From assembly GCF_058153355.1 (NCBI RefSeq), contig NZ_CM177019.1: 64,000 nucleotides of DNA; one strand, 5' to 3'. The translations under genes were made by a program, and so were the position numbers. Shown here piece after piece: positions 7,491 through 45,279 of the stretch. Each line of letters starts with the position of its first letter. Position 1 is the stretch's first letter. The notes beneath the pieces were generated by a model. That model was not told where the DNA came from and did no database searches. It saw only the letters and a program-made list of their open reading frames with translations.

Positions 7491-8017
7491 ATGCAAAACA
7501 GAAAATGGATTTTGACCTCGCTGATAATGACTTTTTTCGGCATCCCCATACTGGCGCAATTACCAACTGGCGCACGGTTGGCGGTAACGATCAGGAGATC
7601 CAGACCTGGCAACGCCCGGAAGACTCTGGCAGCCAGACAGTGATGCAATCGCAGGTCATGAAAAATGTCCGCATGATCTCGCCGCAGGAAACCGAAGTGG
7701 CAAGCATGATGGAGGGAATGATTAAAGTTGTTGCCGAATACCGTAATACAAACAACTCAATAGGCTACACCTTCCGCTATTACGCAACACAAATGAACGC
7801 CGATAAAAATATAAAACTGCTAGCTATTAACGGTATTGCACCGACTGCGGAAAATATTCGTAACGGCAAATATCCGTATATCGTCGATGCCTTTATGGTA
7901 ACGCGGGAAAATACTACGTCAGAAACACAAAAACTGGTCGAATGGTTTTTAACGCCGCAGGGGCAGAGTCTGGTGGAAGATGTGGGCTATGTGCCGCTGT
8001 ATCCAACAATGAAATAA
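7491..8017 (+). pseudogene. yzgL: yzgL-like internally deleted PstS-like binding-protein gene
   Basis: ATG at 7491 encodes a signal-peptide-like start (MQNRKWILTSLIMTFFGIPILA) that runs out of frame after ~50 codons. Frame +2 (track ORF 7505..8017) encodes only the C-terminal half of a protein paralogous to the downstream 330 aa lipoprotein. Confidence 0.6.
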
Positions 8018-8042
8018 CGCTCGAGAGAAAGGAATCAGCGCA

Positions 8043-9035
8043 ATGAATAAATTCACCGGTGTTTTACTATTAGGTACGGCGTTACTGGCGGGATGTGTCG
8101 ACCGGGAAGGGTACTATAACAGCGTCAGGGAAGAAGAGAGTCATGGACTGACGTCTCTGCGGGGGCAACCTGAATTACGTTACAGCGATGATTGGTCAAG
8201 ATGGCCGAGAGTGTACGGCGCTACAGCCTTATACCCGCTGTATGCCTCCGCGTATTATGAATTAGTACCCGAGCCAAAAGATAAGGATCGAACCTCGCTG
8301 GCCTGGCAGGCGTATGGTTTGCAACAAACCCGAACAGCTGAAGCCTACGATAGTCTGATCAAGGGTACCGCGACGGTTATTTTTGTTGCACAACCGTCGG
8401 AAGGACAGAAAAAACGTGCAGAAGAAGCAGGCGTTAAACTGAAATATACCGCGTTTGCCCGCGAAGCCTTTGTCTTTATCGTTGATATCAAAAACCCGGT
8501 TAATTCACTTAGCGAACAGCAAGTCAAAGACATTTTTAGCGGTAAAGTGAGTCGCTGGAATAAAGTGGGCGGCGGTGACGAAAGTATAAAAGTCTGGCAG
8601 CGGCCAGAAGATTCTGGAAGCCAAACGGTTATGAAGGGACTGGTTATGCAAGATACTCCAATGCTGCCAGCCAAAAAATCCACTGTTATCGATCTTATGG
8701 GCGGTTTAATTACCGAAGTCGCCGACTACCAAAACACACCATCTTCCATTGGATACACCTTCCACTATTACGTCACACGTATGAATGACAATATGCTCAA
8801 AATGCGCAAACAGATCAAACTGCTGGCTATAAATGGCGTTGCACCTACAGAGGAAAATATCCGTAACGGCACTTATCCGTACATAATTGATGCTTATATG
8901 GTGACGCACGAAAACCCTACGCTGGAAACGCAGAAATTCGTCGACTGGTTTTTAAGCCCGCAGGGACAGCAATTGGTAGAGGATGTGGGGTATGTGCCGA
9001 TTCATGACGCATCATACGAATCATCAGTGCAATAA
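8043..9035 (+). CDS. putative lipoprotein with PstS/phosphate-binding-protein-like domain
   Basis: 330 aa ORF with Shine-Dalgarno AAGGA, lipobox LLAGC, and C-terminal half about 60% identical by eye to the upstream pseudogene. Family assignment is by motif impression only. Confidence 0.7.
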   Translation: MNKFTGVLLLGTALLAGCVDREGYYNSVREEESHGLTSLRGQPELRYSDDWSRWPRVYGATALYPLYASAYYELVPEPKDKDRTSLAWQAYGLQQTRTAEAYDSLIKGTATVIFVAQPSEGQKKRAEEAGVKLKYTAFAREAFVFIVDIKNPVNSLSEQQVKDIFSGKVSRWNKVGGGDESIKVWQRPEDSGSQTVMKGLVMQDTPMLPAKKSTVIDLMGGLITEVADYQNTPSSIGYTFHYYVTRMNDNMLKMRKQIKLLAINGVAPTEENIRNGTYPYIIDAYMVTHENPTLETQKFVDWFLSPQGQQLVEDVGYVPIHDASYESSVQ

Positions 9036-36695: not shown

Positions 36696-38764
<2,069 letters not shown>

Positions 38765-38766
38765 AT

Positions 38767-38804
38767 AAAACAGGAGGCGAAGGTGCCTCCCGTTTTATTT
38801 TGTG
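38767..38804 (+). terminator. rho-independent terminator after envZ
   Basis: aaaacaggaggc-gaa-ggtgcctcccgtttt stem-loop followed by a T-rich run. Confidence 0.5.
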
Positions 38805-38927
38805 CACTCAGTATCTACTGAATGAATACGGTTTCAGACATCGGCACCATACGAAGTAAAGTGTACTGTAAGCTGATTGCAGGCTAGCGTATCCTGATTA
38901 GTAAAAGCACACTAAAGGAATAGCTTG

Positions 38928-40211
38928 ATGCAACTTACCAACGAAGAACAAGTACAGATTGCTCGTATAAAAGAAAAAATCCCACGCATTGCCGCACTGG
39001 ATCCTGAATGTAAGTTATTCGGTTCTGAAGGTTGGAAATATCAATGGCCGAAGCCTGCCAGCGAGGCGGAAATAGCTTCCTGGGAGAAAAAACATAGCGT
39101 CACTTTGCCACGGGAATATCGAATTTTTCTTCGCTATATCGCTAATGGCGGTCCGGCACATGCCTACGGTCTTGAATCTTTAGGCGGTACAGATATTTAT
39201 GGCGATATAACAAAAGAAAGCCCTGTACCGCTTTATATGACGCAGCAGGATGTTGATGTGTTGAATGCAGGCCGTACAGAAGATGATGAAGAATATAGTT
39301 TTTTTGACGGCGCATTGACCATTCTCACCCTGGGATGTACTTATGATATTTGCCTGGTGGTGACGGGGCAGTATCGCGGAAGGTTAATGCTGACTGATGG
39401 TGATGAAGATTATCCGTTTGATTTTATATATGATAAAAATTTCCTCAACTGGTATGAACGCTGGCTGGACGATTTTATTGCTGGCATGAGTATGAAGGGT
39501 TTCGATAGAAGTTTGCCAGGAACGCAAATTCAACTGCGTGAGTGGTTTTTAACTGAGAAAATCCCGGATTTACGTAGATCCATTTTATTCTCGCTATGCC
39601 GTTTTCCACAGATAGAACCCGAAACATTTGCCCTTTGGGAACATGTTTGCCGCACAGAGAATGATAAAGAATTGTGTGAAGAGGCATTCATAAGATTACG
39701 CCAAAAAAAAGTTTCTTGTGCTGCAGATATTTTTCGACTCTATTTTACAATGCCAGATGAATTACGTGATATTGCTATTAAAGATCTCCGTTTTGCCTGT
39801 AGAGATAGTGTGGTGAATATTGAGGATTATATTCATTCACTGTTAATAATAATGCCTGAACTTGACGATGACACTCTATCCTCAGCTGTCTTTGCTGTAC
39901 GAGAAACAGAGTATAATAAATATGATACTTTTCTGCCGCTTCTCGAACGTATCACTGATGACCGTCAGCAAACATTATTGTGGGCGATGAGTAAGGCGCC
40001 TGATTTCAATGAAAGCCGAGGATTCGTTGAGTTGGTATTACCGCTTTTTGCATCATCAAAGATGGAGAATGTAAGGAAGGCTATTTTGTTGCTCATTGAA
40101 GTTAAAGATAATCGTATTCCACCATTGGTTGATGAAGCTGCAACTCGTTTCCCTGAACTGACCATTTTACGAGAAAACTACTATCTCAGGACGTGGGGAC
40201 ATAAGCCATAA
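38928..40211 (+). CDS. SMI1/KNR4 (SUKH-1)-like protein with C-terminal helical extension; putative immunity-type protein
   Basis: 427 aa from the ATG at 38928 with Shine-Dalgarno AAGGA. N-terminal motif EIASWEKKHSVTLPREYRIFLRYIANGG matches the LPxxYxxFLxxxNGG hallmark of the SUKH family. Visibly AT-rich; no counterpart at this site in K-12. Confidence 0.65.
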   Translation: MQLTNEEQVQIARIKEKIPRIAALDPECKLFGSEGWKYQWPKPASEAEIASWEKKHSVTLPREYRIFLRYIANGGPAHAYGLESLGGTDIYGDITKESPVPLYMTQQDVDVLNAGRTEDDEEYSFFDGALTILTLGCTYDICLVVTGQYRGRLMLTDGDEDYPFDFIYDKNFLNWYERWLDDFIAGMSMKGFDRSLPGTQIQLREWFLTEKIPDLRRSILFSLCRFPQIEPETFALWEHVCRTENDKELCEEAFIRLRQKKVSCAADIFRLYFTMPDELRDIAIKDLRFACRDSVVNIEDYIHSLLIIMPELDDDTLSSAVFAVRETEYNKYDTFLPLLERITDDRQQTLLWAMSKAPDFNESRGFVELVLPLFASSKMENVRKAILLLIEVKDNRIPPLVDEAATRFPELTILRENYYLRTWGHKP

Positions 40212-40248
40212 ATTAATGGCTCAGAAATGATCTAACGCGGAGAGAAAT

Positions 40249-40779
40249 ATGATCAGGGAACATATTCAGCAAGCGATAAATAATAGGTTAGCATTTGATG
40301 GCCCATTCAATGTTGTTCCTGAACCTGCAAGCACTGCGTTTGATAGCCGGATCCCGACATTGAAAAACGGTGTCTGGCAGAAGGCCAGCCCTATGTTGCA
40401 GGCGCGTTTTGCACATTGTGGACGTTGGTTAAGCGCTACACATGGAAGCTGGCTAAGTATAAGTGACATGGAAACGCTTTGGCAGGAACACATAGAAGAT
40501 ACGTTTCTTGATGAAATCAAAATGAATGCTGTAGCTTCAAGTGATAATTGGGATAACCATGCCTTGGGACTATTTCGTTCTCATCGCCTGTCACTTTTTG
40601 CCGGTAGTGATTACATTTATGAAATGGTTTTTCTCCTTTGGCTAGATAGTACCGTTGAGCCAGAGGTCTGGGTTTATGACTGCAATGGGGAATCACGTTA
40701 TAAAGATCTTAATGATTACCTGAATGCATATATTAATGATGACGTAAGCGCCTGTGAGCGCTCCTGGCGAGTAGAATGA
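40249..40779 (+). CDS. hypothetical protein (island gene 2)
   Basis: 176 aa ORF with Shine-Dalgarno GGAGAG; AT-rich; stop overlaps the next start (ATGA). No family recognised. Confidence 0.55.
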   Translation: MIREHIQQAINNRLAFDGPFNVVPEPASTAFDSRIPTLKNGVWQKASPMLQARFAHCGRWLSATHGSWLSISDMETLWQEHIEDTFLDEIKMNAVASSDNWDNHALGLFRSHRLSLFAGSDYIYEMVFLLWLDSTVEPEVWVYDCNGESRYKDLNDYLNAYINDDVSACERSWRVE

Positions 40780-41402
40780 ATAGCCCCCCTTGCCCCTTTG
40801 ATCCACAAACCGCACATTACCTCGGTACAGTGCAAATCCACTACACCTCAACCACCTTCAACGCTGCCGTTAAGCATTATACCTATCACATTAAAAAGCG
40901 TTTTAAAGGGTTTAAATGGGGAATTGGTACCGCTGGCTTATTGGCTATATTGCCCATGATCCCACAATGGTTGAAACCTTCTCATGACTTTAAACTCAAC
41001 GCAATCAGTACGTTAATTCTTCTATTAATGTTGCCACTCCTCTTATCAATGTTCCTGTTAATCAGCAGAAGAATTAACGATTTTAAGTCAAAAACAAAGC
41101 AAGTTACTTTTACGAAACCCGTGCGTTATGCGTTTTATTTCGAGGGGATTGTTTTTTATGAATCTCATCAGCAGGGCATACTTCGCTGGGAAGATTTTTA
41201 TAGCATTGACTATGAAGAAGATTATTTGTGGCTTTTTCTGCATTTACCGAAGAGTTTTCCCAGAGAAGCGACGAAAGCGTTTTGCGATATTTTCATTCCC
41301 GCCAGCGCGATAAAAGCGCAGCCTGAACTGGATACGTTTTTTCGTGAAACACGCCACTATCTGGATTATCTGTTTGTCCCGTTTAATTCTGACAGAAAAT
41401 AA
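40776..41402 (+). CDS. hypothetical membrane protein, two predicted TM helices (YcxB-like topology)
   Basis: 208 aa; hydrophobic segments WGIGTAGLLAILPMIPQWL and ISTLILLLMLPLLLSMFLLI followed by a ~100 aa soluble domain; translationally coupled to island gene 2. Confidence 0.55.
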   Translation: MNSPPCPFDPQTAHYLGTVQIHYTSTTFNAAVKHYTYHIKKRFKGFKWGIGTAGLLAILPMIPQWLKPSHDFKLNAISTLILLLMLPLLLSMFLLISRRINDFKSKTKQVTFTKPVRYAFYFEGIVFYESHQQGILRWEDFYSIDYEEDYLWLFLHLPKSFPREATKAFCDIFIPASAIKAQPELDTFFRETRHYLDYLFVPFNSDRK

Positions 41403-41435
41403 AAAATCCCCCGTATCTGGTGAAACGGGGGATTT
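41403..41435. terminator. bidirectional terminator between island gene 3 and pck
   Basis: aaaaaatcccccgt-atctggtga-aacgggggattt stem-loop with A/T runs on both sides. Confidence 0.55.
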
Positions 41436-41454: not shown

Positions 41455-43077
41455 TTACAGTTTTGGACCAGCCGCTACCAGCGCGGCACCCGCAGGGGTG
41501 TCGGTGTATTTATCGAAGTTGTCGATAAACAGTTTCGCCAGAGTTTCGGCTTTTTCCTGCCACTGTTCCGGAGAAGCGTAGGTGTTACGCGGATCGAGGA
41601 TCTTAGTGTCTACGCCCGGCAGTTCAGTCGGGATCGCCAGGTTAAACATCGGCAGAGTGAAGGTTTCTGCGTTATCCAGCGAACCGTTGAGGATAGCGTC
41701 GATAATGGCGCGGGTATCTTTAATGGAGATACGTTTGCCAGTACCGTTCCAGCCGGTGTTAACCAGATATGCCTGCGCACCCGCCGCTTGCATACGTTTC
41801 ACCAGCACTTCTGCGTACTGAGTTGGGTGCAGCGACAGGAACGCCGCGCCGAAGCAAGCGGAGAAGGTTGGCGTCGGTTCGGTGATGCCACGTTCAGTAC
41901 CGGCCAGTTTGGCGGTGAAGCCAGAGAGGAAGTGGTACTGAGTTTGATCGGCAGTCAGGCGAGAAACCGGTGGCAGCACACCAAAGGCGTCTGCGGTCAG
42001 GAAGATAACTTTAGTTGCATGGCCCGCTTTGGAAACCGGTTTAACGATGTTATCGATGTGATAGATCGGATAAGAAACGCGGGTGTTCTCGGTTTTTGAA
42101 CCATCGTCAAAATCGATAGTGCCATCTTCACGTACGGTGACGTTTTCCAGCAGCGCATCGCGACGGATAGCGTTGTAGATTTCAGGTTCCGCTTCTTTCG
42201 ACAGCTTGATGGTTTTCGCGTAGCAGCCGCCTTCGAAGTTAAACACGCCGTCGTCATCCCAGCCGTGCTCGTCATCGCCAATCAGGCGACGTTTCGGGTC
42301 GGTGGAAAGGGTGGTTTTACCGGTGCCGGAAAGACCAAAGAACACCGCAACATCGCCTTTCTCGCCAACGTTGGCGGAGCAGTGCATAGAAGCGATGCCT
42401 TTCAGCGGCAGCAGGTAGTTCATCATTGAGAACATCCCTTTCTTCATTTCGCCGCCGTACCAGGTGCCGCCAATCAGCTGCATACGCTCGGTCAGGTTAA
42501 ACGCCACGAAGTTTTCAGAGTTCAGCCCCTGCTCTTTCCACTGGGGGTTAGTGCATTTTGCGCCGTTCATAACGATAAAGTCAGGTTTAAAACCAGCCAG
42601 CTCTTCATCGCTCGGGCGAATAAACATGTTTTTGACAAAATGCGCCTGCCAGGCCACTTCGGTGATGAAACGGACGGAAAGACGCGTGTCTGGGTTCGCA
42701 CCACAGAAAGCGTCGACAACGAACAGACGTTTACCGGAAAGCTGTTTGGTCACCAGGCCCTTCAGATGCTGCCAGGTTTCCGGAGAGAGAGGTTTGTTGT
42801 CGTTCTTACCTTTGCCTTTATCAGCCCACCAGAAGGTATCGCGAGTGGTATCGTCACGGACGATATATTTATCTTTTGGTGAGCGACCGGTGAATATACC
42901 GGTATCGACGGCAACGGCACCCAGATTAGTTAACACCCCGCGCTCATAACCTGTCAGGCTCGGATCGAGCTCTTCCTGATACAGCAGGTCGTAGCTTGGG
43001 TTGTAAACGATATCATGTACGTCACTGATACCATAAGCCTCGAGTTCTTGCGGGGTCAAACCATTGTTAACGCGCAT
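41455..43077 (-). CDS. pck: phosphoenolpyruvate carboxykinase (ATP)
   Basis: 540 aa from [17 protein letters not shown]; kinase motif GLSGTGKTT; track ORF is extended 23 codons. Confidence 0.95.
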
Positions 43078-45180: not shown

Positions 45181-45250
45181 CAATGCGTATTTGATTTTTT
45201 ATCGGATACGACGCTTTATCTTACCAACAATAACTTGCGAATTATTGCAT

Positions 45251-45279
45251 AGGCCTGGTAAGCGCAGCGCATCAGGCCA
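45251..45279. repeat. REP palindromic unit
   Basis: aggcctggtaagcgcagcgcatcaggcc between yhgE and hslO. Confidence 0.45.

Follow-up and report, generated by a model that had tools for sequence, protein, structure and literature searches.

What are three AT-rich genes doing between envZ and pckA, two core genes that in Escherichia coli K-12 lie tail to tail across a very short spacer? The locus belongs to a 64,000-nucleotide stretch of contig NZ_CM177019.1 (NCBI RefSeq assembly GCF_058153355.1), referred to below as the window. A first-pass annotation, made from the letters alone, had marked positions 38805–41402 as an accessory island of three same-strand open reading frames (ORFs), called g1, g2 and g3 here, and had offered two candidate functions: orphan immunity against polymorphic toxins, or a small defence or stress module. 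The analysis reported here favours, with a probability of roughly 0.6, a non-mobile orphan-immunity islet serving interbacterial defence. Genomic context speaks for the role of g2 and domain family for that of g1, and the role of g3 is one that we infer.

The ORF list contains the three genes as first described (427, 176 and 208 residues), all on the plus strand: g1 at 38928–40211, g2 at 40249–40779 and g3 at 40776–41402. The g1 start is an ATG at 38928, with an in-frame TTG at 38925, and is preceded by an island-specific leader (38805–38927, plus strand) carrying an AAGGAA Shine–Dalgarno sequence about 8 nucleotides before the ATG. The proposed ATGA overlap of g2 and g3 is present at 40776–40779 (ATG 40776–40778, TGA 40777–40779). 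On either side lie the convergent core genes envZ (37412–38764, plus strand; an ORF call that matches annotated envZ in the 99.4%-identical E. coli EC42405) and pckA (41455–43077, minus strand), whose stop codons are 2,690 bp apart in the window and 75 bp apart in a K-12-lineage genome. Alignment to K-12 bears out the short spacer there and places the junctions: homology is conserved through the T-tract of the envZ terminator to approximately 38796 and restarts at 41455, at the pckA stop codon. An inverted-repeat search located the two terminator hairpins that had been assigned to 38767–38804 and 41403–41435 within a few bases of those positions. The first (38763–38800, 16-nucleotide arms) is shared with K-12, where it serves both envZ and pckA, and the island's left junction is found immediately 3′ of this hairpin; the second (41404–41435, 14-nucleotide arms) is a bidirectional terminator borne by the island, which serves g3 and pckA and is missing in K-12.

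The impression of AT-richness was borne out by computation. Island GC is 0.415 against 0.521 for the remaining window, the lowest value among all 615 same-size windows of the 64 kb, and GC at third codon positions is 0.35–0.43 in the island genes and 0.52–0.67 in the flanking genes. The remark that integrase, transposase and direct repeats are lacking also stands: the ORFs in or beside the island include neither enzyme, and the search for flanking direct repeats or att sites returned only short repeats at chance level, none significant. A PHROG scan of the three proteins gave no matches, and no Rfam family was detected within the island. With no integrase or transposase, no repeats, no plasmid copies and no PHROG matches, the island does not qualify as a mobile genomic island, insertion sequence or integrative element. 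A local recombination tract was also considered and rejected, since identity between the window and K-12 stays at 92–99% along the whole length and does not change abruptly at the island; the divergence is simply that of the lineage.

The evidence for an immunity function centers on g2. Neither g2 nor its 30-member family has a match in Pfam, and g2 has none in NCBIfam or PADLOC. By sequence profile, g2 would not be recognized as a SUKH protein; by predicted structure, it is one. The AlphaFold2 model (pLDDT 74.6) retrieves SMI1/KNR4-annotated proteins in Foldseek searches with E-values of 5e-16 to 1e-5 and TM-scores of 0.6–0.8, and the modelled fold of g2 is that of SUKH.

The homologues of g2 stand where Rhs immunity genes are expected. 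An hcp–vgrG–dcrB–rhs operon of Pectobacterium parmentieri carries a 56%-identical homologue 20 bp 3′ of the gene for a 1,423-residue PAAR–Rhs protein. A 49%-identical paralogue, present in E. coli E57 and 30 further genomes, overlaps the stop codon of an orphan Rhs C-terminal toxin fragment (Rhs-CT) by 4 bp, within a VgrG–DUF2169–PAAR array and beside an Rhs-CT/Imm11 pair. The Rhs tips of the two loci (7586–8668 of the E57 locus, L026; 7600–7981 of the P. parmentieri locus, L012) are homologous past the DPxGL motif, with approximately 50% identity and the shared sequence GHxPDVGWGG…VNSYIGGxTQAVPVGTTY. This tip family has no match in Pfam, NCBIfam or the Protein Data Bank (PDB). Thus, the arrangement typical of Rhs and type VI secretion system (T6SS) immunity, a gene directly 3′ of the toxin C-terminus with the two families co-varying, is found for g2 homologues, though not for the window copy. 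Elsewhere, a g2 homologue occurs in an array with Imm19, SUKH, Imm21, Imm32 and Imm17 genes beside a tyrosine recombinase (a Bacteroidota-type immunity array). This long same-strand array, on a metagenomic contig (L015, 5457–16360), also includes DUF4284, DUF4304 and DUF4948 genes, among others; it adjoins conjugative-element genes as well as the recombinase, and looks like a typical recombinase-associated interbacterial defence cluster. A further homologue has a SUKH_6 gene as its neighbour, and one from Caulobacter stands alone.

DNA encoding the toxin tip is present in 31 E. coli genomes, and the overlap of these with the 18 genomes that carry the island is zero. The tip was not found in any of the 18 by a nucleotide-level test reaching to about 65–70% identity or more, and no toxin C-terminal remnants or paralogues were seen in the window or in related loci. 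Because the tip is missing from all 18 island genomes, g2 is, as judged from homology, an orphan member of an Rhs-effector immunity family in these genomes. Such distance from a cognate pair need not abolish function: in Bacteroidales, orphan SUKH immunity proteins with 35–62% identity to the cognate protein are protective (PMC12247911).

The N-terminal part of g1 falls within the same superfamily by profile as well. Pfam SMI1_KNR4 (SUKH-1, PF09346) matches residues 43–152 with an E-value of 2.7e-6 and SUKH_6 (PF14568) matches with 3.4e-5, both within residues 43–169; the RefSeq name is "SMI1/KNR4 family protein". The domain is followed by approximately 230 residues of putative helical repeats of HEAT type. 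HEAT_2 (PF13646) is recognized in the C-terminal half of four homologues (P0063 and P0069–P0071), and g1 itself has no HEAT_2 match. The same architecture is widespread at 25–35% identity (in Paenibacillus, Chitinophaga, Capnocytophaga and Providencia, among others). Judging from its domain family, g1 is most plausibly also a SUKH-type binder, the second of the islet, which would act by itself in immunity or bind toxins. A dN/dS of 0.155 against the E. albertii gene indicates that selection keeps g1 in E. coli. Certain E. albertii strains have frameshifts that break g1 into products of 211 + 179 residues (L034, 7001–8287) and 296 + 132 residues (L007, 4151–5436); g2 and g3 are intact in these strains, which suggests that g1 may be dispensable there.

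The g3 family is tiny: a set of 5.8 billion proteins yields 18 clusters, and one of 1.8 billion yields 15 representatives. Its AlphaFold2 model (pLDDT 73) comprises an N-terminal strand and helix, two transmembrane helices, a β-sandwich and a capping C-terminal helix, and the soluble domain is predicted to be PH-like. Two transmembrane helices followed by a PH-like fold are the architecture of YcxB proteins, and the top 50 Foldseek matches are all members of that family; a 98%-identical UniProt entry also carries the YcxB name. The Pfam YcxB profile (PF14317) itself scores g3 with an E-value of only 1.9, over residues 123–155, which is no profile assignment. We therefore regard g3 as a predicted YcxB-family inner-membrane protein, with both termini placed in the cytoplasm by the charge distribution. 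A literature search for YcxB function returned nothing relevant.

The RefSeq annotation starts g3 54 nucleotides downstream, at a GTG, giving 190 residues (the start regions span 40776–40832 of the window). The 208-residue ATG start that overlaps the g2 stop is favoured, because residues 8–18 are conserved across homologues, including a fusion protein in E. coli A30, and because the model places a β-strand at residues 15–21. Two short relatives of g3 depart from this layout: P0017 (183 residues) joins the N-terminal 107 residues to a tail resembling a histidine-kinase HATPase_c domain (PF02518), and P0016 (182 residues) is frameshifted after about residue 125. Rearrangement or decay of the gene, or faulty assembly, probably accounts for both.

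How did the island come to be there, and how is it distributed? It is present in 18 of 5,426 complete E. coli genomes, chromosomal and at envZ–pckA in every case, with 99.0–99.5% identity to the window and the three annotated genes intact in all 18. K-12 lacks it, as do 99.7% of complete E. coli genomes, and it is therefore not ordinary core genome, the outcome that would have undone the first proposal. No match was obtained among 72,556 plasmids, and a plasmid origin was rejected on that count. At a core segment 5–9 kb away, the 18 genomes closest to the window (98.4–99.8% identity) are exactly the 18 carriers, and all others are at 98.0% or below. The island is thus fixed in one minor, divergent E. 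coli lineage and has not been scattered by an active element. It also occurs in E. albertii. The idea of a horizontally acquired, non-mobile islet therefore holds with respect to foreign composition and missing mobility genes; it does not hold in the sense of a sporadic acquisition, given fixation in a lineage and sharing with E. albertii.

Comparison of the spacer across genomes reveals a site with many alleles. It is empty in K-12 (75 bp), and in 1,331 of the 5,426 complete E. coli genomes it holds a RelE/ParE–NadS toxin–antitoxin pair. In E. albertii, homologues of g1, g2 and g3 (94%, 85% and 74% amino acid identity) are followed by the RelE/ParE–NadS pair before pckA. The loci examined for this pair were L003 (497–1169) and L008 (7101–7773). 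An Escherichia-like metagenomic contig (L009) has a HEAT-like gene (142 residues), a g2 homologue (66%) and a g3 homologue (65%). In Salmonella enterica (L005 and L006, 4348–6618) the order is a HEAT-like gene (152 residues), a CdiI_5 gene, a 91-residue ORF, a CdiI_5 fragment and a g3 homologue (81%). E. coli A30 (L004, 4566–5606) and Escherichia sp. E4742 have a single 346-residue HEAT::g3 fusion, and another S. enterica lineage (L030, 7001–8098) has a single 365-residue g3::HEAT fusion, in the opposite order and with a host-like GC of 53.6%. Throughout, g3 is the constant pckA-proximal gene, always the last before pckA, and the envZ-proximal cargo (SUKH, HEAT-like, CdiI_5) varies. Translational coupling joins g2 to g3 in both E. 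coli and E. albertii, and in L009 their homologues lie 3 nucleotides apart. Fusions of g3 and the HEAT-like module, in one order and in the other, point to a functional tie between the two, as far as gene structure can tell. Homology of the stand-alone HEAT-like gene to the C-terminal half of g1 was tried and rejected (hhalign probability 0.3). The lone YcxB/HEAT fusion may be the ancestral form of the locus.

Divergence at synonymous sites (dS) in the cassettes does not follow that of the flanks. Between E. coli and Salmonella, dS is 0.24 for g3, compared with 0.50 for pckA and 0.79 for envZ; between E. coli and E. albertii it is 0.19 for g1 and g2, compared with 0.34 for pckA; and against L009 it is at or near saturation for g2 and g3, compared with 0.31 for the flanks. 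This discordance, a matter of sequence comparison, shows that cassettes have been exchanged between lineages at the envZ–pckA spacer, presumably because the conserved envZ and pckA sequences on either side allow homologous recombination. All three island genes are under purifying selection, with dN/dS of 0.15–0.43 (0.39 for g2) against 0.004–0.04 in the flanks, and their proteins evolve 10–100 times faster than the flanks, as is typical of conflict genes. Literature searches on an envZ–pckA hotspot gave nothing relevant.

Some details of these loci can be recorded here. The CdiI_5 fragment of the Salmonella locus is 80 residues long, and the 91-residue ORF beside it may be what is left of a toxin tip. 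The Salmonella g3 homologue starts with 11 residues that match an internal stretch of CdiI_5 (91%), which resembles a recombination scar. The 3 kb or so upstream of g1 in E. albertii contain fimbrial usher remnants, and envZ was not found within the 4 kb of upstream sequence examined. Outside the island, a stretch of about 80 bp in the window between yhgE and hslO (45187–45266) cannot be aligned to K-12, and holds a GC-rich palindromic segment resembling a repetitive extragenic palindromic (REP) element.

A mechanism can be proposed from these observations. SUKH and Imm-HEAT are immunity superfamilies (PMC3113570, PMC3482391), and the relatives of g2 would neutralize one particular family of Rhs C-terminal toxins, which the type VI secretion system would deliver. 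If g2 works as other SUKH immunity proteins do, it would bind the incoming toxin domain tightly and 1:1 in the cytoplasm, and so may shield a lineage in which the toxin is not produced. For g3, two roles may be envisaged: tethering or organizing the soluble binder proteins at the inner membrane, or acting as immunity against a membrane-acting effector. The islet sits in a recombination hotspot where CdiI immunity genes, the HEAT-like gene and the RelE/NadS pair serve as alternative cassettes. The candidate function first offered, orphan immunity to polymorphic toxins, is supported, with direct contextual evidence for g2, whose homologues follow Rhs toxins; for g1 the support is its SUKH domain, and g3 has no demonstrated toxin link.

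Several observations weigh against reading the island as an immunity islet. Immunity specificity in Rhs and contact-dependent inhibition (CDI) systems is often narrow, so an orphan g2 with 49–56% identity may not neutralize the toxins found here, and the identity level of the tip search given above counts on the same side. A consensus promoter scan found no strong sigma-70 match upstream of g1. No canonical toxin partner of g1 was found in any of 83 homologue contexts (3 enterobacterial, including the window locus, and 80 scanned loci), nor does a toxin gene lie directly upstream of g1 or its homologues in the manner of SUKH polymorphic-toxin immunity. The large ORFs upstream of the homologues encode dihydroxyacetone kinase, beta-lactamase-like proteins, sulfatase and pilus proteins. 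An Rhs gene is near a g1 homologue in one of the 80 scanned loci, in convergent orientation, and the other 79 loci are solitary. In Klebsiella aerogenes the homologue is likewise solitary, and a 40%-identical E. coli paralogue lies between a helicase gene and a RidA-like gene, with no toxin. For g3, no toxin neighbours were found, either of g3 itself or of its remote YcxB relatives, which stand alone among housekeeping genes. The lone Salmonella fusion of L030, with its host-like GC of 53.6%, adds that g3 could be a resident envelope gene unrelated to toxins.

These points lead to the alternative that survives best, although we consider it unlikely: a resident envelope or stress membrane module, composed of g3 with g1 or the HEAT-like gene and unconnected to toxins, with g2 and the CdiI genes as passengers in a permissive spacer. 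The constancy of g3 at the locus is what such a module would predict, as is the YcxB::HEAT fusion that is the sole occupant of the spacer in L030 at host-like GC; the solitary settings of remote YcxB relatives, between housekeeping genes, and of g1-type proteins agree with it, and SUKH domains are general protein-binding modules (PMC3113570). Yet every identifiable passenger is of immunity type (SUKH, CdiI_5) or a toxin–antitoxin pair, an odd coincidence for a neutral spacer. The close linkage of g2 and g3, coupled in two species and 3 nucleotides apart in L009, also speaks against this module, and g3 evolves as fast as conflict genes do, with 74% amino acid identity between E. coli and E. albertii where pckA has 99.8%.

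It is tempting to speculate further within the orphan-immunity reading. The g3 protein and its helical-repeat partner might form a new, conserved inner-membrane platform that recruits SUKH, CdiI and HEAT immunity proteins to the site of T6SS or CDI toxin entry, or g3 might represent a new immunity family against membrane-acting effectors; we hold this proposal to be doubtful. Were it true, the envZ–pckA spacer in Escherichia and Salmonella would serve as a locus devoted to immunity through the exchange of cassettes, and a function would for the first time be assigned to the YcxB domain.

An anti-phage or abortive-infection module, in which the SUKH and HEAT proteins would sense a phage component and two-transmembrane g3 would disrupt the membrane, appears improbable. 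The small defence module suggested at the outset fared poorly in PADLOC, where the one result was a weak match of g3 to PycTM, a Pycsar transmembrane effector (E-value 0.0057), of the kind that any two-transmembrane hairpin might give; g1 and g2 gave none, and the PHROG and NCBIfam searches were likewise empty. Translational coupling of g2 and g3 would suit a sensor–effector pair, and a spacer that hosts RelE/ParE–NadS in so many genomes behaves as defence hotspots do. However, g3 also occurs alone or fused to HEAT with neither sensor nor enzyme, and the relatives of g2 are found after Rhs toxins and in Imm arrays, not in defence islands.

Equally improbable is the view of the island as the decaying remnant of an ancient insertion, now functionless. 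Its attractions are plain enough: a cognate toxin and mobility genes are both missing, frameshifts interrupt g1 at two E. albertii loci (L007 and L034), homologues of g3 are truncated or frameshifted (P0016 and P0017), and AT-rich DNA of this kind is likely silenced. Against this, the three ORFs are intact in 18 of 18 E. coli genomes, dN/dS lies far below 1 for each gene, and both the coupling and the terminators are conserved. Least probable is an addiction module in which a small membrane toxin, g3, would be countered by g2 or the HEAT-like protein as antitoxin, for despite the tight g2–g3 coupling and a neighbouring toxin–antitoxin pair showing that the site tolerates such modules, g3 homologues occur without g2 (in Salmonella and A30), stable single-polypeptide fusions of g3 to its partner exist in both orders, which is unusual for a toxin and antitoxin, and g2 relatives outside the locus are linked to Rhs toxins and not to YcxB genes.

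Neither orphan immunity genes nor SUKH immunity is a new concept. New here are a SUKH-fold immunity family without a Pfam model paired with an unclassified Rhs tip, an envZ–pckA hotspot spanning two genera, and the association of YcxB with HEAT. The first provides a defined effector–immunity pair for characterization (the SUKH-fold family and the GHxPDVGWGG Rhs tip), and the islet offers a testable example of orphan immunity in E. coli that could shape which T6SS-armed competitors the lineage coexists with. The multi-allelic spacer, with its empty, RelE/NadS, SUKH islet, CdiI cassette and YcxB/HEAT fusion forms, should be useful for pan-genome and defence-island mapping. The HEAT-like partner and the immunity genes are the first genes with which the YcxB domain has been reproducibly associated in genomes.

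Of the systems already described, the acquired interbacterial defence (AID) and recombinase-associated AID (rAID) clusters, which are orphan-immunity clusters of Bacteroidales with orphan immunity reported in other species too (PMC12247911), are among those closest to the islet. Both contain immunity genes without the effector and both involve SUKH proteins; the 44–51% divergence of g2 from its toxin-linked homologues falls inside the 35–62% identity range reported as protective (PMC12247911), and one g2 homologue actually resides in such a recombinase-linked array. The islet differs in having two SUKH genes, its only immunity-type genes, where those clusters have long arrays; in having no adjoining tyrosine recombinase or other mobile element; and in being fixed in a core spacer of one lineage. 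Its YcxB membrane protein has no counterpart in the described AID systems.

The likeness to SUKH immunity proteins (Zhang, Iyer and Aravind 2011, PMC3113570; Zhang et al. 2012, PMC3482391) lies in the profile matches of g1 and, for g2, in the predicted fold and the immunity slot occupied by its homologues; helical-repeat (Imm-HEAT) immunity proteins are also known from those systems. In contrast, g2 falls outside every Pfam SUKH model, the g1 architecture is nearly always solitary, and the partners described so far are mostly HNH/EndoVII, restriction endonuclease and deaminase toxins, whereas the tip paired with the g2 family lies outside Pfam, NCBIfam and PDB. Orphan toxin/immunity arrays of Rhs in Enterobacteriaceae, located after vgrG or PAAR–rhs genes, are represented directly by the E57 locus of the g2 paralogue, in which an Rhs-CT and its immunity gene are followed by an Rhs-CT with Imm11. 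The window islet has no Rhs core, C-terminal fragment or T6SS genes, and occupies an unrelated chromosomal site. Finally, g3 shares its transmembrane hairpin and PH-like domain with the two-transmembrane bacterial PH proteins YdbS/YdbT of Bacillus subtilis and DdE/DdF of the enterocin DD14 operon, a group genetically linked to the handling of antibacterial peptides and bacteriocins (PMC8657885). Those proteins belong to Pfam PHb2 and not to YcxB, have no detectable sequence similarity to g3 and act in Gram-positive bacteriocin systems; the resemblance is one of analogy, not of membership.

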